Of a DNA stretch of 64,000 bases, positions 30,271 to 60,600 are shown in pieces (the first letter of the stretch is position 1; every line of letters starts with the position of its first letter). The position numbers were made by a program, and so were the translations under genes. The notes beneath the pieces are model-generated. The model did no database searches. It was not told the origin of the DNA and saw nothing but the letters and a program-made list of their open reading frames with translations. Location of the stretch: the IMG/VR virus record IMGVR_UViG_3300023435_000009; one strand, written 5' to 3'. Source of the stretch: a virus. Taxonomy: Duplodnaviria; Caudoviricetes.

Positions 30271-30888
30271 ATGGCCCTGACCCCAAACCAGCTCTACCAG
30301 ACCCTGGCCCAGAATAGGGCTTCGGGTGGTTTCCCCTTCGGGGGTGTTCCTTATGATGGTCTCGCACAGGGGATTGCTTCGGGCGTGATCCAGTGGGGCA
30401 TCAACCAACCGACGAACTTGGCGCTCAAAGGGGTGGCTACGGGACAGCCCGGTATGGGTGTGATCGAGGCTGCGAGCAGCAAACTGGTCGTTCCTCCGAC
30501 TGTGGACGTGGTGGTATCTGCCCTATCAGGAGCGGGGATGCAGGGGCCTTTGTCCCTCTCTCTGGCGACGGCGGTGACCATGGGGATCTCGCAAGGATTT
30601 AGCAGTTATGGACAGTATTCCGGTGTCGCTGCTGGGATTAGCGTGGGGCAGGATGTCTCTAAGGTCATCGTGGCGAACGGTCCTGCTCTGGTGGGTATCT
30701 TACAGGGTACCTTAAGGGCCTCGCTTGGTGCTGGAGCGGCACTTTCGATGATGGCTCAAGGTCTTGGGATCGGGATAGCCTCGTTGCTTCTGTTGGGAGT
30801 CGGGACGGCCTCTGTGACGCTGCCTGCGACTCCCCCCGTTGTGGCGGGAGTTCCTGTCCCTGGCACTACGAACTCGGTGGTGGTGTAA
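30271..30888 (+). CDS. small Gly/Ala-rich baseplate- or spike-associated protein
   Basis: ATG 30271 follows AAGGGA; TAATG coupling to the next gene; function inferred from position only. Confidence 0.5.
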   Translation: MALTPNQLYQTLAQNRASGGFPFGGVPYDGLAQGIASGVIQWGINQPTNLALKGVATGQPGMGVIEAASSKLVVPPTVDVVVSALSGAGMQGPLSLSLATAVTMGISQGFSSYGQYSGVAAGISVGQDVSKVIVANGPALVGILQGTLRASLGAGAALSMMAQGLGIGIASLLLLGVGTASVTLPATPPVVAGVPVPGTTNSVVV

Positions 30889-42302: not shown

Positions 42303-42327
42303 TAAGTGTTCAACGGTGCTTTAAGAT
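42299..42327 (+). promoter_or_regulatory. sigma70-type promoter in the element left end
   Basis: TTGATA (42299-42304), 17 nt, TAAGAT (42322-42327); GTCAT-gtgc-ATGAC hairpin at 42332-42345. Confidence 0.65.
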
Positions 42328-42368
42328 GTTGGTCATGTGCATGACTATCACGCAGGCAGAGGGGAAAA

Positions 42369-43577: not shown

Positions 43578-43804
43578 TGGAGATCCCTAAAGAAATTCAG
43601 GACTTGCTGGACAAACTCGGGGTGGACCCTGGGGCCTGGGGTGAGATGGAAGGGCACGCTGCCACTCCTCCCCTGATGCAGCGTCAGGCTGAAACTCTCG
43701 TCAAGCTCCGCACCTTCCTGGAGACTATGGTGGCCCAGGATCAGGCCGCATTGTCGGGGCTGCATGAACAGTTGGCCCGACTGAAACACGGTGGGGGATC
43801 CTGA
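43577..43804 (+). CDS. small hypothetical coiled-coil protein
   Basis: GTG at 43577 overlaps the TAG stop (TAGTG); the listed start at 43547 lies inside the omegaRNA and is unlikely. Confidence 0.6.
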   Translation: MEIPKEIQDLLDKLGVDPGAWGEMEGHAATPPLMQRQAETLVKLRTFLETMVAQDQAALSGLHEQLARLKHGGGS

Positions 43805-46698
43805 TGGCGAACTCGTGGGGAACACTGACGTTTGAGATCCCGGACTTTCTGGATGACATCCGAAACGCAATCAACAGCGTGGCCGAATGGATGGTTGCGG
43901 TGTTGGACATCGCCCTGCTCGCTCTGAACTTCATCAAGGCGTTTCTGGTTGGCTTCCTCGATCCAATTATTGCATTGGTGCAGGCCCTCATTGATGAGAT
44001 CAACGCTCTTCTCCGGGACTTGAGGCAGTTAGGGTTATACCTGACGGGGGATTGGAACCTCTTGGAGGATCCCGACACGTTGAAGGGCGGCTTCCAGGAG
44101 TATGAGCGGAGGATGATCGCCCGCCTCACGGATAGGACGGATCCGTCACGCCCTGACGTTTCCGCAGCGACCACCGTCCTGTCCATGTTCTTCTATGTGT
44201 CCGTGGACCTGTCCGAGTGGGAGCGGCTTGACCGCACCATCAGGATGTTGCTCGCCTACTTCAAGCAGTTCCCCGCCCTGGCTAGTTCTCATCCTGCCGT
44301 AGCAATCACGGAGGTTCTGTACGGGGCATCCGCAGCGAATTTGATGGACTTCGGAGACATTGGGGCCTTTTTCACGAAGGAGAGTACACCTCCTGCACTG
44401 GCTCTGGTGAAGTGGCGGGTCGACAAAGCCTTCAAGGGTGATGCGTTTTTGCCCCCGATCTCCATTCCTCCAGGCGGCTTCATCGTTACGGTGTCCACGG
44501 TGCCCGAGGGCATCCCCATCGTGTATGACCGTCCTCAGGGGGACCAGGATAAGAAGAAGGTGCCGGGCACATCCACGTTGGCGCAGCCCCGAGAGTATGG
44601 GCCGGTGCTGATGTCCGATGGTCGTCCCCTCATTCTGTACGGTGGGGGGGAGATGATCTATCCGGTCCCTGCCTCTATGACTTACAACTGGGGGATCAAA
44701 GACGGGGCGTTGGTTGATGGGGCAACCCGAGTTTATGGTCTGCTGGGATCGGGGAGGACACCAATCCCAATCGACCTCCTGAAGAACGGGGACGACTACT
44801 ATCTCCAGCGGACCTTCTGGGTGTCCCCCAAGGCCGTTGGAGGGGCCTTTGCTACCGGGGAGTACTCCATCCTTCTGAAGGGTGAGGAAATGCCACGTGC
44901 AGCCCATGTCGTAGCCGACTCGGGTGGGGAACTTCAGTTCGTGGATGATGGCCCTGCTGCGACCCTTTACGTCCGGGTGGCGACCTGTTCCAAGGCCGTG
45001 GCCAACTCCGGGGCCTTCCGATATCAGTTTCAGGAGGGGACGAAGAGCATCACGGGGCAACCCATTCAGGTGGGGGTCAGTTCTGATGGGGTGGAGGAGG
45101 GCAAATCTCCCACGGATATCGGATCCTTCAGCAATCCCCAGCAGATCGTGTTTGCGAACACCAACACCAAGGAGTACCTGGATGCTCTGCGGGTGGCCCT
45201 CCTGGTGCTTGTGTTGGTGCGCCCCGACCTACAGCCGCTGGATGAGATTGAGGGGACGGTGTCTACCGAGACCTTCGAAAACCTCAAGTCCAGCAAAGTC
45301 ATCACCGAGGGGTTGGCCCTCGGCTACTGCGGGTTGGAGTCAGTTCAGCATCTGACGGGTGTGGTCTATGACCAGAAACTGTCCTACGCTGATGCCATGA
45401 AGGTGTCGGACGCTACCGTGTTGACTTTCCGTCAGGATCTCATTGCTCGGATCAACCTGGCAGCCCATGACATCTACAGCAAGACTGGCCCAATGCCCGA
45501 CGTTGAGGCTACCGTAGTCAGTGGAACCAAGTTCCTCCGCACGGCAACGTGGGGGGACATCCTAGATGCAGTTCATCCTGAGGTGACATCTGATGGGAAA
45601 CCTAGCGGCTGGGCTGCTTTCCTGGATCTGACACTGTGGGAGTCTCTGGAGAGTTCCGATCCGAAGATTGGTGTTGCTCGGAACCCTCTGTCCGTTCTTG
45701 GGGGGCTTGAGGATGTGGCACGGAGTCTGATGGGTAACCCCGATGTTACCCTGGATCGGGATCCCCACATGCAGGACGGGCTGGTAGATGCAAACGCTGG
45801 GAAGTGGGACAATTACAAATTCATGGAGATGGCTTTCGGGTCCAAGGAGGAACTCCAGACCTTCTTGAAGGAGTGCCCACCAGGGCTGCGGAGCATTTAC
45901 GAGCAGTGTGTCGTGCAACCTGACAATAAGGACATTGCCGTACCCGACGATTGGTTCCACCGGGTGGATACATCAGACATGGCTGAGAGGCACGTAGGTT
46001 CAGCGGATCTTTCCCCTGTGTTCTTTTATGGTCCCCCTATCCCCGACAAGATGATGTACTGTCGAGGGTTGTTCGTCAAATCAGATCTCGTGACGGCACA
46101 GGATGCCAGCAAGGGAAGAATCCTCCAACAGGCATCTCTTGCCCTGCGTGTGGCGGGGGCGGCAATTCGCAGACCCCTGTCCGATGGGGAGTGGCTGTTC
46201 GTTCGGTGGTTTGACACGATGCCCGGTTTGGAAGACTTCCTGGCTTCCCTGGCAAACTGGATGGAGGCAATCAGGGCATCCCTTCAGTCCATTATAGATA
46301 CGATCCGAAAGTACATCGAGTACCTTGAGGCCCGAATCGTGGACCTACAGCAGTTGATCCGGCGGATCAATGCACTGCTTCAGTCTATCCTGGGTTTCAC
46401 CTTCCAGATCCCCTCATGTTCCGTGTTGACGATGGTGTCCAATGGGACGGGCGGGGTTTTGTCTGACCTGATCACGGCGGACAACAAACCCAGCGACACG
46501 CCGTTGGCCTACGGGGGTGGTGTCGCAGTGGTGATTCCTCTGTTCCCCAGTTTCGTCCTGTTAGATTTGTTGTTGGCCTTTTGGCACCCCAAATCAGGGA
46601 AGCCAGATGGTCCCATGGGTGAGGATCCGACAACCGTGGAGGGGATCAACGGTGTTCCTGTTGTCCCATCAGATCCTGTTGTTCCTGATGTTTTGTAG
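43804..46698 (+). CDS. hypothetical virion-associated protein (964 aa) with terminal amphipathic helices
   Basis: TGATG coupling, phage codon bias, baseplate module; no family recognised. Confidence 0.6.
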   Translation: MANSWGTLTFEIPDFLDDIRNAINSVAEWMVAVLDIALLALNFIKAFLVGFLDPIIALVQALIDEINALLRDLRQLGLYLTGDWNLLEDPDTLKGGFQEYERRMIARLTDRTDPSRPDVSAATTVLSMFFYVSVDLSEWERLDRTIRMLLAYFKQFPALASSHPAVAITEVLYGASAANLMDFGDIGAFFTKESTPPALALVKWRVDKAFKGDAFLPPISIPPGGFIVTVSTVPEGIPIVYDRPQGDQDKKKVPGTSTLAQPREYGPVLMSDGRPLILYGGGEMIYPVPASMTYNWGIKDGALVDGATRVYGLLGSGRTPIPIDLLKNGDDYYLQRTFWVSPKAVGGAFATGEYSILLKGEEMPRAAHVVADSGGELQFVDDGPAATLYVRVATCSKAVANSGAFRYQFQEGTKSITGQPIQVGVSSDGVEEGKSPTDIGSFSNPQQIVFANTNTKEYLDALRVALLVLVLVRPDLQPLDEIEGTVSTETFENLKSSKVITEGLALGYCGLESVQHLTGVVYDQKLSYADAMKVSDATVLTFRQDLIARINLAAHDIYSKTGPMPDVEATVVSGTKFLRTATWGDILDAVHPEVTSDGKPSGWAAFLDLTLWESLESSDPKIGVARNPLSVLGGLEDVARSLMGNPDVTLDRDPHMQDGLVDANAGKWDNYKFMEMAFGSKEELQTFLKECPPGLRSIYEQCVVQPDNKDIAVPDDWFHRVDTSDMAERHVGSADLSPVFFYGPPIPDKMMYCRGLFVKSDLVTAQDASKGRILQQASLALRVAGAAIRRPLSDGEWLFVRWFDTMPGLEDFLASLANWMEAIRASLQSIIDTIRKYIEYLEARIVDLQQLIRRINALLQSILGFTFQIPSCSVLTMVSNGTGGVLSDLITADNKPSDTPLAYGGGVAVVIPLFPSFVLLDLLLAFWHPKSGKPDGPMGEDPTTVEGINGVPVVPSDPVVPDVL

Positions 46699-46707
46699 GA
46701 GATAATC

Positions 46708-47589
46708 ATGCCCAGCTTTTCCAAGTTGTGTGTGTGGCCGCTCGGGTATTTCCGAGCTTACTCAAGCTGGTTGCTTAAAAACCGCCGCACTGTGTCACAG
46801 CGGATCAATGTCATCAATGCCGAGGTTGAACGGATCGGGGTGGTCAAAGTCACATACAGGGCCGTGGAAGCAAACGGAGAGGTTCGTCGGACGGAGGAAC
46901 GGACTGGCCTCTATGTGACTCCCGGCTCGGCCTTGGGCAAATTGTTTCGAGCCTACGTTGCTCAGGGGGGTGATCCTCTTAGCATCTCGCCCTTTACTTA
47001 TCCTGAGACCAATGACATGACGCAGGGGAATTCCGAGCAGGATGCGGTGGTGCAGGAGGAATACCCCTTTGGCGGAGTCGTAGCCCCTCAATCGGCAGCC
47101 CCCAACGATCCGATTTCCTCTGATCAATCCCCTGGTTGGGGTGGTCATCCCGGAGGTTATCTCCAGTCAGATGCCTACTACCCGGCTCGCCAAGGTGGCC
47201 GGATCGACCCCGGTTCTTATGACCATGAGGGGGTCGTGAAATCGATGCGGCAGATGCGGGAGTGGGCTAATCAAGATTTGAAGGAACGCCAGGATCTGGA
47301 GTGGCGGATTGTCAAGCTCTGTGACCTCAGAGAGCAGCTTGTGAAGGAGCGGGACGAGGTGCTCGTTCAGGCCTTCGGTGGTGCTCTGGGTGGGGTGGGG
47401 CCGTTCGACCCGACCCGGTTTGACGAGACGTTGATGGTGCAAAACGTCATTCAGGACATGTATCAGATTCTGTACCAGTCAGATGAGACGGGGCGGGTCA
47501 CTTTTGAACCCAGCGACGAAATGCCCTTTCTCCAGTTCACCTTCCCGAATGAAGCGTCAGAGGTGGGGAGGGACATGTTGGGTTGTTAG
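46708..47589 (+). CDS. hypothetical protein (293 aa)
   Basis: AGGAGA SD; phage codon bias; no family recognised. Confidence 0.6.
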   Translation: MPSFSKLCVWPLGYFRAYSSWLLKNRRTVSQRINVINAEVERIGVVKVTYRAVEANGEVRRTEERTGLYVTPGSALGKLFRAYVAQGGDPLSISPFTYPETNDMTQGNSEQDAVVQEEYPFGGVVAPQSAAPNDPISSDQSPGWGGHPGGYLQSDAYYPARQGGRIDPGSYDHEGVVKSMRQMREWANQDLKERQDLEWRIVKLCDLREQLVKERDEVLVQAFGGALGGVGPFDPTRFDETLMVQNVIQDMYQILYQSDETGRVTFEPSDEMPFLQFTFPNEASEVGRDMLGC

Positions 47590-47590
47590 G

Positions 47591-47605
47591 CGGTGTTTCC
47601 TCTAT
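47591..47605 (+). promoter_or_regulatory. putative late-promoter motif CGGT-N8-TAT
   Basis: CGGT gtttcctc TAT, 35 nt before the gp25-like start. Confidence 0.55.
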
Positions 47606-47639
47606 ATTTTAGATCCTGTGGCACCTTGATGGAGAGAGC

Positions 47640-48791
47640 ATGTCCCAAGATTTCCAACTGGCCTGGCCTTGTCCGCATCTGACTGTAGAGGAGTACATTC
47701 CTCTTGGACCGGATCGGAGATCTTTGGCCACCAAGCAGCCTGTGGCTAACACAGGCACCATCAGGATCCTTGCCAACGACGAGTTCTACATCCCCAACTC
47801 AGGGATGTTTTCACAAGCCGAGTTGATGAGTGCTGTGTCCGGTCCTTATGACATCATCCCCGGTGAGAACAGTTTCACGGTAGAGACCTCGGCGGGTTCC
47901 CAGACGTTCGTTTTTGCTGTTCAGGCAGTGACAAGGTATACGGCGAAACAAGTTGAGGCGTTGTTCCAGAAGGTTAGCACCGGAACCGTCCTCATTGGGA
48001 CAAGCAACAGCCACCTTTCCTTCACGGACACTGCTGCGATTGGGGATGCCTCCTACGTGGCCGTCAGCGGGACCGCTGCAGGCGCTTTGGGGTTCGGGGC
48101 GGCGGGGGTCAACTCCTACCAGCGGCGGGCCATAGGACGGCGTTTGTTTCCCTCCTGGAACATTTACACACCAGGCGGAGCAATCACGGCCAGGTACCCC
48201 CGGTTCACGTCACCTATCACAATGGGTGACCCCGTGTTTAAGGTGACGTATTCGATGCCGGGTAACCGCTGCCTCAGGTGTGGCGCTACCTATGTCGAGA
48301 ACGACATCCGGTTCGCAGCCAGCGGTCAAAGCCTGATGGTGGCTAATGAGGATCTGCTCTATCAAGCGGCCCTCAAGATTCTACTGACGGACAAGGGTTC
48401 TAATCCCTACCATCCCTGGTACGGAACGGACCTTCGTTCTCGGATTGGTTCGAAGACCGTTTCCGGTGTGGCGACCTTGATTAATGAGGACGTGCGGAAA
48501 GCGTTGGCCAAGTATCAGTCCCTCCAGACGGAGCAGGCCAAGTTCCAGCAGGTCACCTACAAGGAACGTCTCTACTCCGTGACCAATGTGACGGTCTCTC
48601 CGCACACGCAGGACCAGACCACCTTCATGATCGACGTGACAGTTCAGAACGCTTCTTCTGACCCAATCCATCTGAACATCGTCTACACGGTGCCTGGAGT
48701 GGTGGCTCTGATGGGATCCAACGGGTTAATGTTAGGGGCAAAGACCGCAGGACTTGAGAACCAGCCCAACCCGTTTTCAGGAGGCAACTGA
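47640..48791 (+). CDS. baseplate wedge/sheath initiator, gp25 (GPW)-like, N-terminally extended
   Basis: C-terminal NEDLLYQAALKILLTDKGSNPYHPWYGTDL...IDVTVQN is the gp25 pattern; precedes the J-like gene. Confidence 0.85.
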   Translation: MSQDFQLAWPCPHLTVEEYIPLGPDRRSLATKQPVANTGTIRILANDEFYIPNSGMFSQAELMSAVSGPYDIIPGENSFTVETSAGSQTFVFAVQAVTRYTAKQVEALFQKVSTGTVLIGTSNSHLSFTDTAAIGDASYVAVSGTAAGALGFGAAGVNSYQRRAIGRRLFPSWNIYTPGGAITARYPRFTSPITMGDPVFKVTYSMPGNRCLRCGATYVENDIRFAASGQSLMVANEDLLYQAALKILLTDKGSNPYHPWYGTDLRSRIGSKTVSGVATLINEDVRKALAKYQSLQTEQAKFQQVTYKERLYSVTNVTVSPHTQDQTTFMIDVTVQNASSDPIHLNIVYTVPGVVALMGSNGLMLGAKTAGLENQPNPFSGGN

Positions 48792-51700
48792 TGGCGACAA
48801 CTCCCAAGTTCCTGGCCCCCGATGGGCAGTATCGGGAGAACTACGTTTTCACCACAGACGTCTCCTACCGCTTCTTCTCGGGGCAGATGGATGCGGACAC
48901 GGCGGACATGCAGGTTTCGCTTCGGGGCGGGGCCTTTTCGTCTAATCCTGATTACATCCAGTTCGAAGGTACGACCTTCACGATCCCGAATCCTTCAGCC
49001 TTCCCGGACGGACTCCAGCTTCTTCAGGGTGCCAACGTCATCGATGTCAAATCGGTATTGACGACGGGAGAGACGACAGCGGCGGGTGTCATTCGGGCGA
49101 ACCTGGCGGTTGACCGGGATGTGAAGGCTGAGGTGCTGGCTCCTTCCGGGATTTTCATCGAGCGTTTGGACCGCACAGTAAAGATCACGGTCACGGGTTT
49201 GGAGGACGAGGAGGTGACGGGGTACAACTTCTACGCCTCCGCCTTTCCCGGAGGCGGGATCACCGGGTACAAGAGGGTCAGCATCCAGCCTGTCATCTCC
49301 TATGACACAGAGGAGGTCTTGTCTCTTATCGGCATCCTAGACGTGGACATGGATGTGCCTCTGAACGATGATGGCACACCCCTAGCCAATCCTCTGCTTT
49401 TCCGCACCATGGGGATGCAGGTGAATCTTGCGGGCGACATCCTCCAGTCGGACTTTGACGAGAGTATTCGGATACCGGACAGCACGACCCATTTCCGCAC
49501 CTCTGTTGGGATAGACTCAGTTTCTCTCGTGAAGAAGTTCTCCTTCACACACAATCGAGCGGCACTGCCTACGGATGCGAAAAATCCAGCGGTTCCATAC
49601 AATGACTTCCAGGCCCTCCCCGATGAGGATCCCCTGTACTATGCGGTCACTGCCATCTACCTCATCGATGGTGTGGAGTACGAATCTCAGGTGTCCCAGG
49701 AGGTTGCGGGGGCACCTCTCATCGTGACCCCCCAGGTAGCGAACCTCCCGGCTGTTTCCCGGCAGCAGGTCGTGCGAGACACCACACTGGCGATCTTCCG
49801 GTCCCACCCCGAAGTGGACGTGAAGCCCGGCTCTTACCTCAGGGACACCTTCATCGACCCCTTCTCTACGGAGGCGGAACGTATCCGTTTCATCGTGGGG
49901 TTCCTCCAGGCGGGGCAGAGCTTCACCACGCTGCTGGCTATCGATGACCCCACTGGGTCGGGTACGTCGCTACCTGTGACACAGAGTCCGTACAAGATTG
50001 CCCTCAAGCAGGCGTTCTACCTGCAAGACACGGCATCGGTACAGAACCTGGTGGACAATGCTTTCGACCATCTGGCAGCCAGGCGAGGGGTTCAGCGGCG
50101 GGCTGGGTACCGTGCCCATGGTGAGGTGCTCTTCTATGTGACCAACCGACCGACCTCTACCCGCTTTATCCCGATTGGGACGATTGTGACGAGCGGTTCA
50201 GTGAGGTTCCGCACTACGTCCGCAGCCCGTATCTCACCCACAGGGACAGGGACGACCTACAGTCCTGCCACCGGACGCTGGACGACCCGAGCCTACGTCC
50301 AGGCGCTGGAGGCGGGGGAAGCAGGGAACCTGACGAGAGATCAGATCCGCACCGTTCAGAATGGCCCCACCGATGTACAGGTCACGAACCCGAACAACAC
50401 CTTCGGTGGTCGAAACACGGAGTCCAACTACGCCCTTGCGATTCGTGCAGACGGCGTATTGGCTTCGGTGGATTCGGGGACGTACAGGGGTCTCACTCAG
50501 GATGCCTCGGATGTGCCTGGGGTGCGTCAGGTGAACGTGGTAGAGGCAGGGCACACCCTCATGATGAGGGACTTGGATGTCACAACAGGCAGGCACTGGG
50601 GCGGCAAGGTGGATGTGTGGACCCGTGGAGACAGTAGTGCCACGCTCACCGACTCCTTTGCCTTCTCGTTCGAGTCGGTAATCGACGGACAGTTCGAGGC
50701 AGTGGGGGACATCGGAAACCTCAAGTTCCGGGCGATCAACTCCCGTGTGACCGAGGACTTCCCCATCATTGAGATGCTCAACATCCCTGACTGGGAGTTG
50801 GAGTTCAGGGACGAAACGAAGGGGACTGTGCTGGACCTGAGGGACGCTGAGATCATCCGACCGGATGGGTTGCAGCTTTCCGCCACCTACAATGATCCGA
50901 CGCTGTTGCACTATCTGGACGTGTTCCGAGGCTCCTACCGCTTCCGCACGAGTAACAAGTTCGTGTTCAGCCGTCAGCCCGTGGGCGAGATCAACTCCTT
51001 CTACAAGCTGCTGGCCTCGGGTGACAAGAGCGTCGTCAGCACCTCGGCATACAAGCTATTCCATCCAGGCGACCCAATGGTGCTGGGACGGTCCACAGAG
51101 GCTGGGGACTACATCCAGGTGGTGGAGCCTCTGGACGGGACACCTCCTGTGAACATTCCCTCCGGTGACCCCATCGTGATCACGGGGGAGAGTCACGTAC
51201 TCCTCTCCGGGCCTGAGTATCTGGAGAACCTCGGGATTAACCCATACACGGTCCACGTCTACAACTTTGACCGTTCCATCGAGTACAACGGTCCCTTCCA
51301 CTCTTCCTCAGTCAAGGATTACACCCTGGTAGAGGAGGTGGATGAGACTCCCGTTGCCTTTGTCCCGGTTACGGGCGGGCGGTTGTTGGAAGGGATGCAA
51401 GTCATCGTTGACTATCAGCACGACGAAAACTACTCGGTGGAGTACATGATCAACGCCGTGGTTCAGGCCGTGCAGAACGCAGTGGACCTGAGCAGGCACG
51501 CCACCGCTGACGTGGTGTCCAAGGAGTCCATCCCGGCGGGTGTGAATATTTCCGGGACGGTTGTCATCCTCAGGAACCAGCAGTCCTCGGTGGTGGACGG
51601 CAACATCCGCACAGAGTTGGGTCGAGTGTTCGGGGCAATGACCCTGGCCCAGCCTCTCCGTCAGAGCGACGTCATCAGTGCAATCGAAACGGTGCAGGGA

Positions 51701-52258
51701 GTGTCCTACGCTGTAGTTCCTCTGACCCATCTGGCCAGGCAGGACGGTTCTACTGTGGTGCGGGAAGAGGTTGTGACCTCGCAGGGAGGCACAGATTGGG
51801 TAGACATTTCCTCCGTTTCAACTCACGCCTGGCATGACGATGCTGTGACGATCTACTTGGTCACCAACCCCCTGTACAGTAACACCACGGATGGGGGCGG
51901 CGACTACAACGAATTCCGAGGCGTTTTCATTGACGACGTTCCCCAGACCCTCTTTGACGTTGTGCCTCAATTCGACGGGGCACCGCTTAAGGGCGTGGCC
52001 AACGGGGCGTGCATCATCGGTGACGATGGGATGAGCATCCCAGGGTACCTTGGGGCCACGGCCAACAGGATCTTGCTGGCACTCCCTACGGGGGTGAATC
52101 CTTCGGACGGTACCTTGAAGGTGACCTACATTGCCATGGACGACAGCGGGGTGAAGAACATCGAACCGGGGCCTGCGGAGTATCTGGTGTTGGGTGACCT
52201 GGAGTTTACCTATGATGAGGACCGGGACTTCTCGGCTCTGGTGACAGGGCGGAGCTAA
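48791..52258 (+). CDS. baseplate J-like (gp6-like) wedge protein
   Basis: DVKPGSYLRDTFIDP, FDHLAARRGVQRR, ALEAGEAGNL, TFGGRNTESNYAL and VPGVRQVNVV are Baseplate_J-type motifs. Confidence 0.88.
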   Translation: MATTPKFLAPDGQYRENYVFTTDVSYRFFSGQMDADTADMQVSLRGGAFSSNPDYIQFEGTTFTIPNPSAFPDGLQLLQGANVIDVKSVLTTGETTAAGVIRANLAVDRDVKAEVLAPSGIFIERLDRTVKITVTGLEDEEVTGYNFYASAFPGGGITGYKRVSIQPVISYDTEEVLSLIGILDVDMDVPLNDDGTPLANPLLFRTMGMQVNLAGDILQSDFDESIRIPDSTTHFRTSVGIDSVSLVKKFSFTHNRAALPTDAKNPAVPYNDFQALPDEDPLYYAVTAIYLIDGVEYESQVSQEVAGAPLIVTPQVANLPAVSRQQVVRDTTLAIFRSHPEVDVKPGSYLRDTFIDPFSTEAERIRFIVGFLQAGQSFTTLLAIDDPTGSGTSLPVTQSPYKIALKQAFYLQDTASVQNLVDNAFDHLAARRGVQRRAGYRAHGEVLFYVTNRPTSTRFIPIGTIVTSGSVRFRTTSAARISPTGTGTTYSPATGRWTTRAYVQALEAGEAGNLTRDQIRTVQNGPTDVQVTNPNNTFGGRNTESNYALAIRADGVLASVDSGTYRGLTQDASDVPGVRQVNVVEAGHTLMMRDLDVTTGRHWGGKVDVWTRGDSSATLTDSFAFSFESVIDGQFEAVGDIGNLKFRAINSRVTEDFPIIEMLNIPDWELEFRDETKGTVLDLRDAEIIRPDGLQLSATYNDPTLLHYLDVFRGSYRFRTSNKFVFSRQPVGEINSFYKLLASGDKSVVSTSAYKLFHPGDPMVLGRSTEAGDYIQVVEPLDGTPPVNIPSGDPIVITGESHVLLSGPEYLENLGINPYTVHVYNFDRSIEYNGPFHSSSVKDYTLVEEVDETPVAFVPVTGGRLLEGMQVIVDYQHDENYSVEYMINAVVQAVQNAVDLSRHATADVVSKESIPAGVNISGTVVILRNQQSSVVDGNIRTELGRVFGAMTLAQPLRQSDVISAIETVQGVSYAVVPLTHLARQDGSTVVREEVVTSQGGTDWVDISSVSTHAWHDDAVTIYLVTNPLYSNTTDGGGDYNEFRGVFIDDVPQTLFDVVPQFDGAPLKGVANGACIIGDDGMSIPGYLGATANRILLALPTGVNPSDGTLKVTYIAMDDSGVKNIEPGPAEYLVLGDLEFTYDEDRDFSALVTGRS

Positions 52259-52488
52259 TGACAATCATCACCGTCAGATGGCGGGAAGGTGGCGAACGCA
52301 TGGAGAAGGCCGTGGAGAGGCTGCCCTGGACGGGTCACATCCTGGACGAGGTGATCTTTCACCGACCCCCCACCGTTTTGGAGTTGGCTGCCTTGACGCA
52401 GCATCTCAGGGGGCCGAGGACCCGTTGGAAGATGCTGACGGATAAGGGGTGGCGTGGGGGCTCAATCTGGGGGGCACGGGATGGCTGA
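52258..52488 (+). CDS. small hypothetical ORF between the J-like and I-like genes
   Basis: Fills the gap exactly (TAATG overlap with J, 8-nt overlap with the next gene); no family recognised. Confidence 0.45.
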   Translation: MTIITVRWREGGERMEKAVERLPWTGHILDEVIFHRPPTVLELAALTQHLRGPRTRWKMLTDKGWRGGSIWGARDG

Positions 52489-53899
52489 TCCTACGGACAA
52501 AAACCTCCTGCCAGGACTGCTGGCGCAGAATCCGTCCCTCTGGGAAAAGGACTCCCAGGATCATAAACGGAAGGTGCAGGAGCAGGTAGAGCGGGTGATG
52601 ACGGTGTTCCGCCAACTCATCCCCAGCAACTATGTTAGCAATGTGCCTGGTCCTTTCTACATGACGCAGTTCCAGTCGGCAGCGGAGCAGATTGCCGACT
52701 TCCAGATCACGGCCCAAGAGGTCTTTGCTGACTCGTTCTATGATTTCACCCGTTCCGAGGTGCTCTATCAGATCCTTGGTGATCTGGTGTTCCCCGACGC
52801 CCGGACCTATGGGTATCCTGAGCTTGAGGGCGACCTGACCTACAGAGTGTTCCTCCAACGGATGGTGGTCCTTCTCCTTCGGGGAGCCACGACCTCGGTG
52901 CAGAAGGACGGTGTAGAGTTGCTCACGACTGCCACCGTCCAGGTGTTGGAGCGGGGCATAGAGGCCCGCAAACTCCTTGTGAGGGATGCGGACGGCACAC
53001 TTCGCCCGACCTCCGCCTGGGCTGAAGCCGACGCTTTCACTTTTGAGATCAATATCAGCCAAGTGGCCGGAACTGTTGAGATTGACGGGGTCTCCGTTCC
53101 GCTGTACGGCTTCCCTGAGGACCCCTTCAAACTCCAGCGGAACGTCTATCTGGTGCTCCGGGCGCTGAAACCCGCCCACGCCCTTTATGACTATCGCCAT
53201 CTCTTCCTGGACACCTTCGGGGAGATGTTCTCTGATGTTCACCGGGTCGACATGTCCTCCTACTACTACCAGGACTTCAGGCGGTACTGTCTCGGGGCCA
53301 AGAGGGTAGCAGGAACGGCGGGGATCACCTGGGCGAACAAGACCCTGTTCAGCGATCACCAGAGGGACTTCACGGGGATTGATCCCACGGCAATGCTGAC
53401 TATCCTCTCCGGTCTGAACTCAATCCATGTTGGGGGCACTGAAGGGACACCCGCTTCCCAGGATATGTGCCACGTCGGTCGGTACGAGGTTCTGGAAGTT
53501 AAGTTTTTTGTTCAGGACGATCAGGTTGCCCGGCAGTACACCACGTTTCCCACGGGGCTGACGGGGTCGGCAACGGTGTCCGGGGACGAATTAGAGGACA
53601 CGGCGCAGCTTTCCTGGCACACGATCCAGGAGGGTGAAATTCTGACCCTCCTGAGTGGCCCCAATGCAGGCTCCTATCGACTCAAGACTGTGTTGGGACA
53701 GTACGGGGGACCAGCGGGTAGCACATTGATAGCAGCACCGGCTACAGGGGTGAAGGTTGCCCCCAGCATCCTCCGGCTTCGTCGTCGGATGGGGGTCAGT
53801 GCTACTGGGCAGTCCTATGAGGTTCAGGTGGACAGGTTGGGAGTGCAGGAACCTCGTTTGGCTAGTCAGGAAGATGCCACCGTACAGTTTCTCATCTAA
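52481..53899 (+). CDS. baseplate wedge/tail protein I-like (gp7-like)
   Basis: Follows J; FYDFTRSEVLYQILG...YRVFLQRMVVLLLRGAT...VLRALKPAHALY resembles the P2 gpI/gp7 N-domain. ATG 52481 preferred to GTG 52454. Confidence 0.7.
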   Translation: MADPTDKNLLPGLLAQNPSLWEKDSQDHKRKVQEQVERVMTVFRQLIPSNYVSNVPGPFYMTQFQSAAEQIADFQITAQEVFADSFYDFTRSEVLYQILGDLVFPDARTYGYPELEGDLTYRVFLQRMVVLLLRGATTSVQKDGVELLTTATVQVLERGIEARKLLVRDADGTLRPTSAWAEADAFTFEINISQVAGTVEIDGVSVPLYGFPEDPFKLQRNVYLVLRALKPAHALYDYRHLFLDTFGEMFSDVHRVDMSSYYYQDFRRYCLGAKRVAGTAGITWANKTLFSDHQRDFTGIDPTAMLTILSGLNSIHVGGTEGTPASQDMCHVGRYEVLEVKFFVQDDQVARQYTTFPTGLTGSATVSGDELEDTAQLSWHTIQEGEILTLLSGPNAGSYRLKTVLGQYGGPAGSTLIAAPATGVKVAPSILRLRRRMGVSATGQSYEVQVDRLGVQEPRLASQEDATVQFLI

Positions 53900-53905
53900 G
53901 CCGTC

Positions 53906-53920
53906 CATTGATGCGCCTAT
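53906..53920 (+). promoter_or_regulatory. putative late-promoter motif CATT-N8-TAT
   Basis: CATT gatgcgcc TAT, just after the I-like stop codon. Confidence 0.5.
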
Positions 53921-53991
53921 AAATTCGGTAGGGTGAGGTCTAGTCTGAAAGAAGTTGGGTTTGGGGTTACAGACTGTGGAGAGGGGACACA

Positions 53992-54516
53992 ATGGTTTTA
54001 CGTGAGAAAGTGCTCAAGTTGGCCCACGACCGGCCAGAATTTCGGAAGTACCTTGTTCCTTTGTTGAGAAGGTGTGCTGCTTCGACTCCCTCCTACCAGG
54101 AGTACGTGGACAAGAAGAGACAGAAGAATGAGCGTCCTCTCTCCAAGGATAAGTGGGAGAGGAGGGTGCTGCGCAACCGGGGGATCTCTGAGGGCCACGA
54201 AGAGTGGAAGAAGGACGAAGCGGCCAAGAAGGACCTGAAGAAGACGGATAAGTCCGACACCAAACGGAAGGACCGAAAGGAATTGTCCGATAAAGTTGTG
54301 AAATCCAGGGGTCTCAAGGATAAGGATCTTGAAGAAGTTCAGGCCTATCAGAAGAAGAATGTGAAGCCGGGTCAGAAGGGCAAATTGAAGCCCTGGGAAC
54401 TCAAAGCTAAGTTCTTGGCAAAGGCCAGCCCTGAAACGAAAGAACGGATGAAGGGGCTGAACAACCAGGAGTTCATGGCGGTTCTCAATGCTATCATGGA
54501 TGAGGACGAGGGTTAA
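53992..54516 (+). CDS. small highly charged (Lys/Glu/Arg-rich) hypothetical protein
   Basis: GGAGAGGGG SD; 174 aa; N-terminal LREKVLKLAHDRPEFRKYLVPLL helix. Confidence 0.7.
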   Translation: MVLREKVLKLAHDRPEFRKYLVPLLRRCAASTPSYQEYVDKKRQKNERPLSKDKWERRVLRNRGISEGHEEWKKDEAAKKDLKKTDKSDTKRKDRKELSDKVVKSRGLKDKDLEEVQAYQKKNVKPGQKGKLKPWELKAKFLAKASPETKERMKGLNNQEFMAVLNAIMDEDEG

Positions 54517-54518
54517 CC

Positions 54519-54533
54519 CAGTTTTTAGCCAAT
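54519..54533 (+). promoter_or_regulatory. putative late-promoter motif CAGT-N8-AAT
   Basis: CAGT ttttagcc AAT directly upstream of the AGGAG RBS that the mini-element displaced. Confidence 0.45.
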
Positions 54534-54545
54534 GAGGTAGGAGAA

Positions 54546-54668
54546 CGTTTCTAGGGTTCTTGACAGTGTGTAACGGGGCGCTGGTTTCGGCATTAGCTGA
54601 AACGAAACTGTCCTCGTTGGAGTAGGGGCTAATTCCTACGTTTTTGTGCGTGGGGAAAGGTAGCAGAA
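54546..54668 (+). mobile_element. 123-bp non-autonomous miniature derivative of a TnpB/IS607-like element (left end plus 3' omegaRNA/right end)
   Basis: 54541-54579 aligns to the TnpB left end 42282-42319; 54578-54668 aligns to 43479-43570 (77/92 identical); flanked by AGGTAGGAGAA and AGGTAGCAGAA. Confidence 0.85.
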
Positions 54669-54671
54669 GCC

Positions 54672-57600
54672 ATGGCAGCGGTAATCGTCAGTAAACTATA
54701 CACCTCTCCGGTTGGCCCCCAGGTTGGACCCACCGAGACGGGGATCAGCAGGAACGATCTACAAAAGGGCTACCGTGTGGTCTGTGAGTCACTTAACGTG
54801 GCGACGACCTACAGTTGGTCCCTTGTGTTCACTCCGGATTCCCCTGGCCCCACAGCGGCCTCTGGGAACGACTTCACAGGTACTCCGTCCACTGCGGGCC
54901 TGCTGCCCCCCGAGGGTAGCACGTCGGCCACGTGCAAGTTTGATGTAGACTGGGACGGTTCCTACCTCATCCGTCTCATCACTGATGCGGGCACGGTAGA
55001 CGAGGACTCTCAGTTCATCCGGCTTCGATTGATGACTACCTTCGGTGATCTGAAGCTCATCGCCGCCGGGGAGCGTCGGGACCAAGGTGGTGTGGTTCCT
55101 GTGGACGCAGCGACCGAAGGGTGGTCGGATGTCCAGAACCAGAACATCCAGCGGCTGATGCTGATGGTGCGCCGGGGAATGACTACGGGCCGGACGCTCT
55201 ACGTTGATCCCAACAGGGGGCGGACCTTCCTTACCTCTCAGGCGTCCGACGATACTACAAATATCGTGCGTGTCCCCGGACCGGACTCCGCAGCGAGAGA
55301 TGAGAGTGGGATGCGGATGTCGGCGGTAGGGTGTGGGGACTTCTCCTCCATCTCTGAAGCCATCAGCTACGCTTCCGCTGCTGTCGCCAGGGGGGAACCG
55401 GCCTTGGCTGCAGGGGATCCCTACATCATCAATGTGGCCCCTGGGACTTACAATGAGGACTTAGCGCTGGTCCCCTTCGTTTATTTGATGGGGGCTGGGG
55501 GGTACTACAATCGGGTCACTACAGTTGATGCCACCACTACAGGTTCCCACACGTTTACGGCAACAGGTCCCGGTGACCTCTGTGTTTTGATAGGGATGCA
55601 CCTGACGAATAGTCTCGTTACAACCGGGGCGGTTCTGGAAAACAACGGTGGTATTCTCATCCTTCAGGACGTTGCAGTCCAGCAGGAAGGTGTTTCCGGA
55701 ACGCAGGGGCCTGCTCTTCATGTTGATCAGGCTTTTGAGTCTACGGTCTGGGCTGACCAATGTCTCTTGAGTTCAGAGGGCTCTCCTGCAACTCAATATG
55801 CGCTCGTCCTTGAGAACCTTGCTGGAGCAGTCACCTTTACAGGGGGGATGATCGTTGGGCCATCCGCTGTGTTCTGTCTCTCGGATCCTGTCGCAGGAGC
55901 ATCTACGCTGGCTGTAGACATCCGCAGTGCTGTGATTACAGCAGGGGTCGGAGGTACTGCCTATCAGGGATACCCCAGCAGTACGACGTTTGCTACCTCT
56001 GAGATTGGGGGGCCTGTGGTGCTTAGTTCCGGGGCTTACGGGGTGGGGGCCTACACCCACGATGTGGAACTGGAACTCAACGCTGTTTCCTTTGATGTAG
56101 CTCTGCTGGTTGCCCCTGTGTCAGTGACCCCGACTGGTACGACCGGATCCTGCACTTTCAACCACGGGGACGTTGTTGTCCGTGGAGCTACCGCAGGGGA
56201 TTATCTGGATGTCCCCACGGCCCCTGGAAACGTGCCTACGGTGGAGCCCAGTTCTCAGAGCTACGCCAACTATTTTGACAACAACTTCACCAACCCTCTG
56301 ACGACGCTTTCGCTGAACAGTCTTCAGCAGATCCCGGTGGGTAACGTCCAGGAGGCCCTTACGCTCCTGACTCGTTACGTGCTGCCCGTCACGGGAGCAC
56401 CGTTCTACTCCCTGGAGTCTGCATATAACGGCCTCGCTTCCTTGAACCCCCCGGTAGCGGGTGATGGGTTGGGCCGGACCATCGAGGCGGGTGCCGGAGC
56501 TGTTCAGATCACGGCGGCACTTGCCCCGGTGGTACCCTACGAGCCGCTCCTGTTGGGCGGTCTTCAGGTAGAGGGTCAGGTTGATATAGGCCCCCTGATG
56601 GGGGATGGCCTGGGCTCCGAGTTTACGGTCGACCCCAACACCTTTGGGATGGGTGTGATCCTTAAGATGGGTCGCAATGTCTTCCCCAACGTGACGGGGC
56701 TGAATTCGTTGGCTCTGGTTCAGGTGGGTTCCGATCCTTCTTTGCCTTTCGACTACACTGTCCACACGAGGAACAGTGCTGGTCTACTCCTCAGGCCGGG
56801 GGCTGCAAGTCTGGTTGCAGGATCCGGGGTAGGGGCACTTGGCCCTGGGGGCGGTGACGTTCATCTACAAGCGGGTTCCGCAGGAAACCCCGCACCCACT
56901 ACGGGTTCTGTGTGGGTTGCCCCCGGTGCCCACACTGTTACTAACGGACGTCTAGAGTTGGCGGACCCCTCAACGGCGACGGCCCCCACTTTGTTGGCTG
57001 CCGGACCTTTTGTTCCTGGTCCCGCCACAGGCACCTTCTACATTCAGACCATCAATGGTGTGGAGGAGCACACGATCCTGGCGGCGGACACCATTGGCAC
57101 TTTGGTGGCCCGAATCAACACCACTTCCCTGAGTTTGGCGGCTACAGCCGTCATGGGGACCACACTAAGACTCACGGGTCTGAACACGGGGCCGACCGCC
57201 TTCATCCTCTACATGACGGATGATCAGGGCGGGGCACTCAACACAATGATGGGAGACTTGGTCCCCCCGGCGGCGACATATGTTGCAGGGAGCTACGTCA
57301 ATCATGTGGGTCTGAGTTGCATTGGAGCCAATCTGTTCCATGTTCACGGTACAGTCTCGGCAGATGTGCCCATTATTGCCGTTCCTGGTGGCTATCAGCC
57401 AATGCTCAATCCTGGAGCGCTTGTTGGACCAGGAATCGCTATTGTTGGGGTGGATAACACGGCAGGTACTGTTACGGTGACACTTCCAGTAGCTCCTGCT
57501 GTGGCGACACAGCTTACGGTCAAGCACGAGGCGGGTGTGTTGGCTCCACTTACTCCTGTGAACATCGTTCCGGGGGCAGCCAATATCGACGGTGTCGCTG

Positions 57601-57686
57601 GACCCCGTGTCTACAACAACCCGTTGGACCACCAGTTCAGCCTGACAATGTACTTTAGCGGTGCCGCTGGTTGGTTCATCATCTAA
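54672..57686 (+). CDS. tail fibre/tailspike-like protein (Ig/PKD-like N-terminus, parallel beta-helix, C-terminal fibre-tip domain)
   Basis: TYSWSL...YLIRLIT (PKD-like); RTLYVD...FSSISEAI...INVAPGTYNEDL (pectin-lyase-like beta-helix start); C-terminal VDNTAGTVTVTLP...IDG...GWFII. Confidence 0.7.
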   Translation: MAAVIVSKLYTSPVGPQVGPTETGISRNDLQKGYRVVCESLNVATTYSWSLVFTPDSPGPTAASGNDFTGTPSTAGLLPPEGSTSATCKFDVDWDGSYLIRLITDAGTVDEDSQFIRLRLMTTFGDLKLIAAGERRDQGGVVPVDAATEGWSDVQNQNIQRLMLMVRRGMTTGRTLYVDPNRGRTFLTSQASDDTTNIVRVPGPDSAARDESGMRMSAVGCGDFSSISEAISYASAAVARGEPALAAGDPYIINVAPGTYNEDLALVPFVYLMGAGGYYNRVTTVDATTTGSHTFTATGPGDLCVLIGMHLTNSLVTTGAVLENNGGILILQDVAVQQEGVSGTQGPALHVDQAFESTVWADQCLLSSEGSPATQYALVLENLAGAVTFTGGMIVGPSAVFCLSDPVAGASTLAVDIRSAVITAGVGGTAYQGYPSSTTFATSEIGGPVVLSSGAYGVGAYTHDVELELNAVSFDVALLVAPVSVTPTGTTGSCTFNHGDVVVRGATAGDYLDVPTAPGNVPTVEPSSQSYANYFDNNFTNPLTTLSLNSLQQIPVGNVQEALTLLTRYVLPVTGAPFYSLESAYNGLASLNPPVAGDGLGRTIEAGAGAVQITAALAPVVPYEPLLLGGLQVEGQVDIGPLMGDGLGSEFTVDPNTFGMGVILKMGRNVFPNVTGLNSLALVQVGSDPSLPFDYTVHTRNSAGLLLRPGAASLVAGSGVGALGPGGGDVHLQAGSAGNPAPTTGSVWVAPGAHTVTNGRLELADPSTATAPTLLAAGPFVPGPATGTFYIQTINGVEEHTILAADTIGTLVARINTTSLSLAATAVMGTTLRLTGLNTGPTAFILYMTDDQGGALNTMMGDLVPPAATYVAGSYVNHVGLSCIGANLFHVHGTVSADVPIIAVPGGYQPMLNPGALVGPGIAIVGVDNTAGTVTVTLPVAPAVATQLTVKHEAGVLAPLTPVNIVPGAANIDGVAGPRVYNNPLDHQFSLTMYFSGAAGWFII

Positions 57687-57698
57687 AACGGGGGCATC

Positions 57699-60600
57699 GT
57701 GCCTGGACCCTTTACATATCCTCTGCCTCATCCTGCAGGAGCCGGTTACGGTGGTGTAGGATGGAGTCCCCGTGCCGGGGACGGAACGTTCGATCCCCAG
57801 AACGTGGCCTATGGCTACGGTGAGGACTCCTATGGAGCCATCGATTTCCCCGCCCCGCCGATTGCCGTCGATGGGGGTTATGGTGGTGACCCCTATGGGA
57901 CAGGACCCTATGGTGGGATCGAGCTAGTACCCCCTCGTTTGTCTTCCGCTGTTAGCTTGAACGGTTGGGAGATCGAGGTGTTCTTCTCTGAGGAGATGGA
58001 TCCCAATGATCTTTCGCTGGTGGATCCCCTTTCCTATCTGTTGACTCCCGTGGATGCTGCCGCCTCCGAGGTGCTTTCGGTACGAATTGAAAAGTTGGGC
58101 AGCATCTCTCTGCACGATCACTTCCAGGGTGTCTTGTCCGTCATCATCACACACACGGGAACCACTCTGGGTGGGACCTATGAAGTGTGGGCCACGGGAC
58201 CGACCGACGTCTCAGGGAACCCCATCCTAGACATCCCCTTTGAATTGTTGACCATCGGGGAAGCTCCCGTTTACACCGTCTCCGCTGCCAGCGGGAACGA
58301 ACTGCTGTTCCAGTTCAGCCATGCGATGCTCTCGGCGGCGGATGAACCTGCCGGATCTCCAGGTATCACGAACCCTGCCTCGTACCAATTCACGTCTGAC
58401 CCAGACTATCCGATCACCTTGACACCTGTCATCATCACTCACCCATATAATGGAGACGCCTCCCAGGTGCATCAAGAAGTGCAGGGGATGACGTCGGTGC
58501 AGTACAACTGTACGATCAGCCCCGCAACCGAGATTGAGTACGACGGGACGATCCTGCCGAGCGAGGCCACGACTTTTACCGGGACCGAGGTGTTCCCTGG
58601 TAACGGTCAGTCCCTCATCACAGGGGGCAAACTCATTCTTAATAAGGCTAAGGTTCTCAGCTACGGTTGGGACTTCCTGGTCTTGGGTGGAACGATCCCC
58701 GCTGACTCTACGTTCCGTGCAGACGTGATCGTCAATGCGGGAGCAGCGATCTATGCCCCTCCGTTGGCAGCCTTTACGACGTTGAACCTGGGACAGGCCA
58801 TCTTTGCCACAGGTCCTGTGGGGATGGGCACACAGGCGACGGTGACACTTCAGAAGGTGGCTGGTAATCAGGATCGTATCCATATCCAGAGTGGGGTCTG
58901 GATCACAACGGTGATGGCCACCTGGAGTTCCGGGGACATCACACTCTCGATGGTGCGGAACAGGAAGGCGGGTTTCATCACCTTCCTTCTCGGAGGCGTG
59001 CCCCTCGTTACAGTGCCTACAGCCACCATTTCGGAACCCTCCACGCTGGCTGGGGCAGGGGTGCGGTGGTTGCTCTCGCCGTCCCTCACGAACATTTCGG
59101 GGTTTCAACTCCTGGACGTGTCGTTCGAGCAGACCGAGACGGTGTGGTCCGCAGCGTGGAACTTCCTGCATAACATGATGGGCCTCTTCCAGGGATCCGC
59201 AGCGCACACACGGCCCTGGCTTCTGACTCAGCGAGGTCCCTTGGTGAAGGACTGGGGGGACATGACTCCCGCCACCAAGCAGGACGTAGCACTGTGGGTC
59301 AATGGTGGTGAAGTCGATGTTTCCGATGTGAATCCCTATTGGGGAAAGGTCACACCGACGATTCCCATTCCGTTGCTCCCACCGGGCGACCCTCAAGCCG
59401 ACGTCAAAATAGACTATCACTGGATGGCCACACCAATCATGCCTTTGGCGGGGTTGAACGTAGAAGGGGCTGTTCTGAACAAGTGGGACCGGGCAACCGG
59501 ACACCACGATCCCGCCTTCCACGGCGAGCAGATCCAGGACGCCACCCACGCCAAGGGGGCACCCGACATCAGCCGTTTCCCGATGGGTGTGGTGATTGGA
59601 CCCCCAGATTACCCCGAACCGCTCTTGGTCAGCCATCGGTACATGGGGTTCGAGAAGGACGCTTCGGCGCTCCTCAACAGTCCTACCACGATGATCCTGA
59701 ATCAGGATCCCCGTGTCTCCCAGGTTCCGGCCTTTGAGTCGCCCACCGAGGGCACGACACGGGCTTTTGAGGGTGCCCAGAGTCCTACACTGGACGACCC
59801 CCCTTGGACGTTAGAGGGGCAAGACACGGGTTCAGCGGTCAACGGCATTTATACTGTCATTGACAGCCAGTCGGGAGCCTTTAATCCTGACGACCCCAAG
59901 GTTGCGATGTACTGGGGGGAGATCGACCTTAATTTCCCCTCTAACCTCTATCTGGTTGGGAAGTTTTCGGTGCCCAAAGATCCCGTGACAGAGGTGGCTT
60001 CCGTGTCACCCCACGGAGTCTTCACGGGTGTTGGGTTCGGTGTCCACGACAATCACCACCTGTACCTGGCCGGAGCTATTCAGCTAGGCACAACGGATAT
60101 TATTCGTCACGTCGGGATACTCAAAGATCCAACGATGATGCATCTGTTGGACGGGTGGGATCTGGGACCGAAGGCCACCATCAGCATCATCTCCTCTACC
60201 GTGTGTACCGCAGCTTCCTCCAGTGTGCCTACGGGATTCACTACAGGCGGTCGGTTCAATATTCTGAGTGGCTCCCAGGCGGGTGTCTACACGGCTTCCT
60301 CCGTGATCCGCCACAGTACGGGAACGACCGAGATTACGGTGACCCCCGGCTTCCCCGCCAATCCCAAGCTGTACGATAACAAGTACTTCGATGCGATCTT
60401 TGAGGTGGACTGGGTGGAGGATTCATCCACCTACCGGATGGTGGTGGACCCAGAGCAGCGGACGGCAACGCTTGACATTTCGGGTAGACTCTCCGGGCGG
60501 GTTGCGACGTTGGACGGTACCGTGGCGCACATGCCTCAGCCTGCCCAGACGTCCCTTTTGTTGAGCACCGAGTACGAAGGCCAGGTCTTTTGGGGGTCGC

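Follow-up and report, generated by a model that had tools for sequence, protein, structure and literature searches.

What is the short unit that separates the Shine-Dalgarno sequence of a phage fibre gene from its start codon, and how did it come to lie there? The question is raised by a locus in the window, that is, the whole 64,000-nt stretch of DNA analysed here, whose source is a 109-kb IMG/VR virus record with a CheckV completeness of about 21%. The window sequence is also found on a 528-kb JGI contig, and the phage is therefore a huge phage; the stretch is present in 24 salt-lake metagenome DNA runs, with no RNA runs among those listed. The region is composed of co-directional structural genes, including a 3804-aa ORF, a Baseplate_J protein and a 1004-aa fibre-like protein (ORF list and Pfam). 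The unit, hereafter the mini unit, is identical in three independent assemblies (the JGI 528-kb contig L003, Logan L004 and ENA L007) and is thus not an assembly artefact. BLAST of its locus, and of the locus of the TnpB element resident in the same window, against 50,697 GenBank phages returned no match. The features discussed are located in Table 1.

Table 1. Position of the mini unit, the resident TnpB element and associated features (window coordinates unless a contig is named)
Feature	Position	Strand	Basis or remark
Mini unit, 123 bp	54544-54666	+	counted between the AG common to both junctions
Ancestral Shine-Dalgarno core GGAG of the fibre gene; flanks the insertion on the left, candidate TAM	54540-54543	+	
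Left-end-derived part of the mini unit, about 36 nt	54544-54579	+	alignment to resident 42285-42320
Right-end part of the mini unit, with GGTAGCAG at its end; 3'-terminal 89 nt of the omegaRNA scaffold	54578-54666	+	
Purine-rich GGGGAAAGG near the right end of the mini unit	54652-54660	+	11 nt before ATG; read from the sequence
AAGCC spacer and fibre ATG, right flank and formal guide position of the relic	54667-54674	+	ORF list, L005
Fibre gene ORF	54672-57686	+	ORF list
174-aa lysine-rich ORF	53992-54516	+	additional gene separating the conserved promoter/leader from the fibre gene
Resident tnpA-less IS607-type TnpB element	42285-43568	+	bounds counted from the shared AG
Resident tnpB ORF, 402 aa	42369-43577	+	ORF list, Pfam
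Resident omegaRNA scaffold core, 113 nt	43456-43568	+	model R1, 101.3 bits
AG-ended elements	L015, L018, L021, L033, L035, L041, L063, L113, L114, L119, L124, L129, L141, L143; window 43568 and 54666		
Left-end/right-flank repeats	window 42285-42288 / 43569-43572; junctions of L113, L021, L018 and L033		
tnpA remnant behind a very short left end	L021:740-835; L124:1403-1501		apparent deletion intermediates

The two parts of the mini unit correspond to the two ends of the resident TnpB element. With two small gaps, the resident left end from 42281 can be aligned to the 40 nt at 54540-54579; 20,000 random 40-mers drawn from the window all scored lower. Positions 54578-54670 are 83.9% identical to 43479-43572 over 93 columns. 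In the left part a TTGACA -35-like box is still present, as is the GTGnnAACGnnGC motif; the -10 box is gone. The halves overlap by GC (AACGGG[GC]GCTGG), forming the LE-RE junction GTAACGGGGCGCTGGTTT, as would be expected if some 1.16 kb had been deleted internally. No coding capacity is left in the unit, while both parental ends are kept. The original prediction, that the left end of a TnpB element had been fused to the 3' part of its omegaRNA through a GC microhomology, is therefore borne out: both halves show significant homology, in the right order and abutting, and the GC overlap is present at the joint. The predicted length of 123 bp also holds, provided that it is counted between the shared AG dinucleotides.

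The resident TnpB contains the HTH_OrfB_IS605, OrfB_IS605 and TNB domains (Pfam); its residues 5-356 align with the ISDra2 TnpB (E 2.5e-57), and the RuvC D/E/D catalytic residues are conserved. The element has a promoter, TTGATA-17-TAAGAT, and is flanked by ATGG[AGAAGG]TCTCTG and GGTATC[AGAAGG]CCTAGTG, so that AGAAGG occurs at both junctions. Its empty site is seen in L031, a phage relative with 67% identity in the neighbouring 964-aa protein, where it reads ATGGAGAAGGTATGA and where the giant gene ends, overlapping the next start. In the window the 3804-aa ORF (30888-42302) ends exactly at the left junction, and the left end of the element supplies its last five codons and stop (VSET-stop); the end predicted at the window's own empty site is A-stop, and the L031 relative ends in MEKV-stop. 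The tnpB stop codon TAG (GGTAGCAG in the mini unit, L018 and L021) is TAT at 43563-43565 in the resident copy, and the ORF therefore runs three codons into the flank, i.e. the guide position, and stops at 43575-43577 on a TAG overlapping the GTG with which the next gene begins (43563-43577). An IMG/VR scan with the resident TnpB alone found nothing; its nearest TnpB relatives share 55-65% identity with it, and each is placed between genes of the same orientation in a phage-like setting. Outside the window there is another TnpB-like ORF, 462 aa long and divergent (G000:C1:21245-22633; L002:1057-2445, minus strand), with a TNB domain barely over the Pfam cut-off, an OrfB_IS605 match under it, and no omegaRNA model match adjoining it.

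Both the mini unit and the resident element belong to the IS607 family, as had been predicted, because their relatives carry a serine-recombinase TnpA. The ORF directly upstream of tnpB combines a MerR-HTH with a Resolvase domain in eight of ten relatives sharing the omegaRNA model; L009 has a Resolvase ORF in this place, and the upstream ORF of L010 has no Pfam match. L041 is an autonomous element, complete with tnpA, tnpB and omegaRNA, and has the same right end, AAGGTAGCAG, as the mini unit. In the solo tnpB elements L021 and L124 only the last ~30 codons of tnpA are left (…HCFSSRLYGLRNY…; …VHCFSSRLYGLRNY…), which marks them as deletion intermediates between autonomous IS607 elements such as L041 and the tnpA-free copies; the solo TnpB copies on phage contigs are tnpA-deleted IS607 derivatives. 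A tnpA gene of either type (Resolvase or Y1), for which a search of the genome had been suggested at the outset, was not found in the 109 kb covered of the ~528-kb genome.

Elements of the IS607 family have no inverted repeats and make no target duplication, and exchange occurs at a dinucleotide present in both ends and in the target, which in the characterised members is GG, within TGGG (PMC6188088; PMC10690162). The elements described here resemble the IS607 IStron of C. botulinum, IS1535 and IS607 itself (PMC10690162, PMC6188088) in several features: (i) a MerR-HTH and resolvase TnpA beside tnpB in the autonomous relatives; (ii) no terminal inverted repeats; (iii) one dinucleotide common to the two junctions and present a single time in the empty site; (iv) an omegaRNA that overlaps the 3' end of tnpB and extends as far as the right end; (v) a TAM-like motif as the left flank. 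They differ in having an AG core with a GGAG flank instead of GG and TGGG, in having as target the Shine-Dalgarno sequence 5-10 nt ahead of a start codon, and in copies without tnpA, the mini unit lacking also tnpB and the 5' part of the omegaRNA. The AG is found at both junctions of the mini unit, the resident element and six relatives, and once in the L031 empty site. Two end groups can be distinguished: an AACGG end goes with a GG core (several tnpA-bearing relatives), and an (A/G)GCAG end with AG at both junctions. The GTGnnAACGnnGC motif recurs in the left ends of the resident element, the mini unit, L018 and L041, with no repeat array defined. An IS200/IS605 reading, with insertion after TTGAT/TTGAC and a Y1 TnpA, was rejected because ~20 nt upstream of the pentamer are common to unrelated insertion sites, because the L031 empty site ends at GGAGAAGG, and because the relatives carry serine recombinases, not Y1.

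Removal of the mini unit from the window gives gtAGGAGAaGCCATGgCAGCgGT, in which the fibre gene regains a ribosome site, AGGAGAAGCCATG, matching AGGAGATGCCATG of L005 at 12 of 13 bases; the reconstructed empty site is AGGAGAAGCCATGGCAGCGGT against AGGAGATGCCATGTCAGCAGT in L005, and the precise empty site predicted for the window population is GGTAGGAGAAGCCATGG. The sequence upstream of the L005 fibre gene (55% identical protein) reads aAGGAGAtGCCATGtCAGCaGT, and those of L006 and L193 read GGAGAcacaATG and GGGAGcaccATG, respectively. In all three relatives GGAG lies 4-5 nt before the fibre ATG and the unit is absent; the fibre intergenic spacers of L006 and L193, likewise without it, measure 51-76 nt. 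An empty allele, sought as a check on the prediction, therefore exists at homologous loci, and these compared sites are homologous, not near-isogenic, the closest fibre-locus relatives being only ~55% identical in protein. The final AG of the GGAG is the dinucleotide repeated at the right junction of the mini unit. From these comparisons the mini unit is evidently an insertion into the Shine-Dalgarno site of the fibre gene, and the predicted location in the ribosome-binding site stands, since removal restores a ribosome site and start that match the relatives. The promoter CAGT-N8-AAT, claimed to be restored together with it, found no support: no promoter-like site was detected in or before the unit (53850-54750). 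Contigs from four low-share runs over 53600-55400 are fragments of the same strain, none spanning the unit, and are neutral on the empty allele; their sole loose end is the resident TnpB copy.

As a result of the insertion, the AGGAG that originally stood 5 nt before the fibre ATG is now 128 nt upstream. In all related right ends GGAAGG or AGAAAG immediately precedes the terminal CAG, suggesting that the element brings a substitute ribosome site of its own, and in the mini unit GGGGAAAGG probably replaces the displaced Shine-Dalgarno sequence. Since the insert splits GGAG from AAGCCATG…, a cognate TnpB-omegaRNA would have no TAM beside its target, and the occupied fibre site would be uncuttable by it.

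Transcription of the fibre gene probably starts at a conserved promoter upstream of the 174-aa ORF. The promoter-like ATTGATGCGCCTATAA is located just after a 475-481-aa gene at window 53907-53922, L005:2945-2960 and L006:2929-2944; it is kept in the three phages although their proteins are only ~55% identical, and is likely to be the promoter of the fibre operon. Together with the leader …GG(G/A)GACACAATG it precedes the fibre gene in L006 and the 174-aa ORF in the window. This ORF is missing from the fibre loci of the relatives and belongs to no Pfam family; its sole homologue is distant (37%, L008, beside an RNase_T gene), and an IMG/VR scan with the protein found nothing. A role as cargo of the TnpB element was rejected, as the upstream leader is native and common to L005 and L006; against it is also the lack of an omegaRNA model match near the homologue in L008. 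The gene is a separate acquisition and no part of the transposon relic. In one ENA contig of the same phage (L007) a 2-bp deletion frameshifts the ORF, at low depth and possibly through error.

The position of the mini unit is typical of its group. A same-strand ORF of at least 66 aa starts 5-10 nt downstream of 15 of the 17 AG-type right ends, and a sixteenth runs off its contig. The left flank GGAG abuts the left end in seven of the eight elements with a readable left junction, the exception being L114 with CTAG. No such placement before start codons is seen for the relatives ending in AACGG with a GG core. With AG ends before start codons and GGAG as the flank, the omegaRNA guide position would be the start region of the next gene, and the AG-ended, mostly phage-borne elements appear to target Shine-Dalgarno sites. 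An IS607 TnpB subgroup of this kind seems to be undescribed, as judged from a limited full-text literature search. The left end begins with 1-4 nt that repeat the right flank past the shared AG (AAGG, AA, GTA, GTG…), and the varying length of the repeat argues against a fixed target duplication. Across eight elements the 3 nt to the right of the core match the start of the left end at 14 of 24 positions (p ~5e-4), which would fit a recombinase preferring targets that resemble its own RE-LE junction. For the mini unit, the insertion site and its own RE-LE junction (GGTAGG[AG]AAG and GGTAGC[AG]AAC) agree at 10 of 12 positions.

The retained part of the omegaRNA was examined with a covariance model of the 113-nt core built from ten close relatives. 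The model finds one match at the tnpB 3' end in each of 78 of the 176 related loci, and nowhere else there. The family folds into four nested helices, with 96.6% of cells paired and two-sided changes in 13 of the 14 pairs, compared with ~40% paired when the partners are slid; the helix alignment was fitted to the model, so these figures lean towards structure. The mini unit scores 31.4 bits (E ~2e-6), the resident copy 101.3 bits. Without the 5' strands of helices 1 and 2, the mini unit has lost five of five and three of four pairs, respectively. In ISDra2, with a scaffold of 116 nt, TnpB recognises stem 1 and the pseudoknot, both built from the 5' ~30 nt (PMC10097598). An Rfam search (E up to 1, 40000-58000) matched no family, RAGATH-18 included. 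Pairing of GUUAC (5') with GUAGC (3' tail) as a pseudoknot was discarded, since it is not kept in relatives.

Decay is seen also in what remains. The most strongly conserved motif, GAAGCAGGAAC, has become GGAGTAGGGGC, and the GAAGCAGGAA core motif reads GGAGTAGGGG; motif positions 2, 9 and 10 are G in the mini unit and A in 73-78 of the 78 relatives, never G. At columns conserved to at least 90% the mini unit deviates in three of eight, and 48 of 63 relatives deviate in none. Judged against nine outgroups, all four changes at columns conserved in every one of the nine fall on the mini branch, and the changes of the resident copy are in variable columns, apart from TAG to TAT. Changes at positions otherwise invariant in the family have the signature of relaxed constraint. 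As the long-range helices cannot fold and invariant positions are changed, the mini unit is unlikely to be a competent TnpB guide. Two hairpins of the retained part still pair, one of them through a two-sided change (CC..GG to UU..GA), and some residual constraint on, or role for, the mini RNA may persist.

The divergence between the two copies, 16%, had been taken as a sign of a related but non-identical parent. Such a parent is possible but not required: the mini unit is far closer to the resident element (82%) than to any other relative (66% for the next), it is on the mini branch that the conserved columns changed, and a copy of the same lineage decaying after the deletion would explain the divergence as well as a foreign parent.

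We regard the mini unit as probably a protein-less, internally deleted and decaying relic of an IS607-family TnpB element, which now forms the leader of the fibre gene. A full-length relative of the resident element, from the mostly phage-borne AG-core subgroup whose insertion sites are GGAG Shine-Dalgarno sequences located a few bases upstream of start codons, would have integrated at the AGGAG of the fibre gene, and the features of the junctions fit a serine-recombinase exchange at the shared AG. The ~1.16 kb comprising the -10 box of the promoter, tnpB and the 5' 23 nt of the omegaRNA core would have been lost between two GC dinucleotides, either in place or before arrival at the fibre site. 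The remnant would then be carried passively in the fibre mRNA leader, with its purine-rich right end probably standing in for the displaced Shine-Dalgarno sequence, and with the separation of GGAG and AAGCCATG… presumably making the site resistant to a cognate TnpB-omegaRNA.

The similarity of the insertion site to the element's own RE-LE junction, in the mini unit and across the eight elements, would also fit integration by a recombinase acting on an active, MITE-like non-autonomous IS607 element, which keeps its cis sites and transposes within the structural module by means of a serine TnpA supplied in trans. The retention of both parental termini with the AG core at each junction points the same way, and protein-less LE/RE derivatives (PATEs) are known for IS200/IS605 (PMC10055086). 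The site similarity is, however, equally explained by integration of a full-length parent, and the mini unit keeps ~36 nt of left end, whereas the IS1535 transposase requires four 9-bp motifs located ~20-60 bp from the left terminus (PMC6188088). Copy number also speaks against this: the 109-kb record, in which tnpA is lacking, contains two copies of the omegaRNA part only, the resident one and the mini unit, itself single. An exact 22-mer common to both omegaRNA copies has no match in IMG/VR, and among the 78 model matches in the 176 related loci, all at a tnpB 3' end, there is no further orphan. The original prediction of a spreading satellite with MITE-like mobility is consequently not supported, as the suggested BLAST of the unit gives one copy in 109 kb of the ~528-kb genome, and an empty allele was not found among the population contigs covering the site. 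An active element is thus unlikely.

The scaffold that ends against the fibre start could alternatively be an orphan guide RNA, loaded in trans on the resident TnpB and cutting unoccupied fibre sites (AGGAG + AAGCCATGGCAGCGG…); cleavage of the target form AGGAG+AAGCCATGGCAGCGGTAATC in co-infecting relatives would then lead to homing or marker exclusion. An empty site would indeed place GGAG beside the guide match, the scaffold is 82-84% identical to the resident one with two hairpins retained, and trans-acting omegaRNAs borne by PATEs have been proposed (PMC10055086). Against this stand the deletion of the 5' strands of the covarying helices 1 and 2, the three family-invariant A that became G on the mini branch, the correspondence of the missing 5' segment, by ISDra2 homology, to the protein-recognised stem 1 and pseudoknot (PMC10097598), and the lack of a promoter-like site in or before the unit. 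We consider such a guide very unlikely. The further consequence, that the relic RNA loaded by the resident TnpB gives it a second guide against the ribosome site and start codon of the fibre gene in insert-free competitors, has a very slight probability; if true, the relic would amount to RNA-guided phage marker exclusion or homing in a 123-bp cassette.

The substitutions specific to the mini unit might instead have built a regulatory leader, in which a terminator-like hairpin, or pairing of the left end with the start region, tunes fibre expression. A hairpin GTAGGGG-CTAA-TTCCTAC followed by GTTTTTGT (54622-54649) is present only in the mini unit and uses five of its substitutions, and the whole unit with the start region folds better than shuffled sequences (z -2.5). 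One terminator-like hit is, however, what shuffling yields (mean 0.8), the minimum-energy fold is the ancestral 3' hairpin, with which the new one competes, and no relative has a comparable leader, so that exaptation of this kind is highly improbable. A native leader with chance similarity and no transposon origin, favoured only by the position in an intergenic leader, is already refuted by the significant likeness of both halves to the resident ends in the right order and abutting, by the absence of the unit from relatives and by the omegaRNA model match (E ~2e-6).

As a transposon relic, the mini unit can be compared with other reduced or selfish elements. It shares with the PATEs (Meers et al. 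2023, PMC10055086) a minimal ORF-less LE+RE structure, a retained guide-RNA sequence and a presumed need for proteins in trans. PATEs are multicopy, keep the end hairpins of the Y1 TnpA and often have an intact omegaRNA, whereas the mini unit is single-copy, of IS607 type, and has a truncated and mutated scaffold. In relation to the ISDra2 TnpB-omegaRNA (PDB 8EXA/8H1J), a scaffold core of ~113-116 nt and the D/E/D residues are conserved; ISDra2 is an IS200/IS605 element with a TTGAT TAM, and only the 3' 89 nt of the scaffold are kept in the mini unit. No IS607 counterpart of PATEs was described in a limited full-text literature search. In the cycle of phage homing-endonuclease genes, the nuclease is lost after fixation and the occupied site stays resistant. 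The mini unit resembles the relics of free-standing homing-endonuclease genes as the product of a selfish nuclease cassette between conserved phage genes; the nuclease here was RNA-guided, and resistance would come from the split of TAM and target, not from target substitutions.

Taken alone, the mini unit is a transposon scar, the deletion remnant of an IS. It is of value as the endpoint of a reduction series, seen in the present data, which runs from the autonomous IS607 element (L041) through copies with a tnpA stub (L021, L124) and the resident element without tnpA to the protein-less LE+RE remnant. The subgroup of AG-ended elements that appears to target Shine-Dalgarno sequences is a more interesting by-product than the mini unit itself. 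If the TAM of these elements really is the Shine-Dalgarno sequence, every phage gene start would be a potential landing or homing site.
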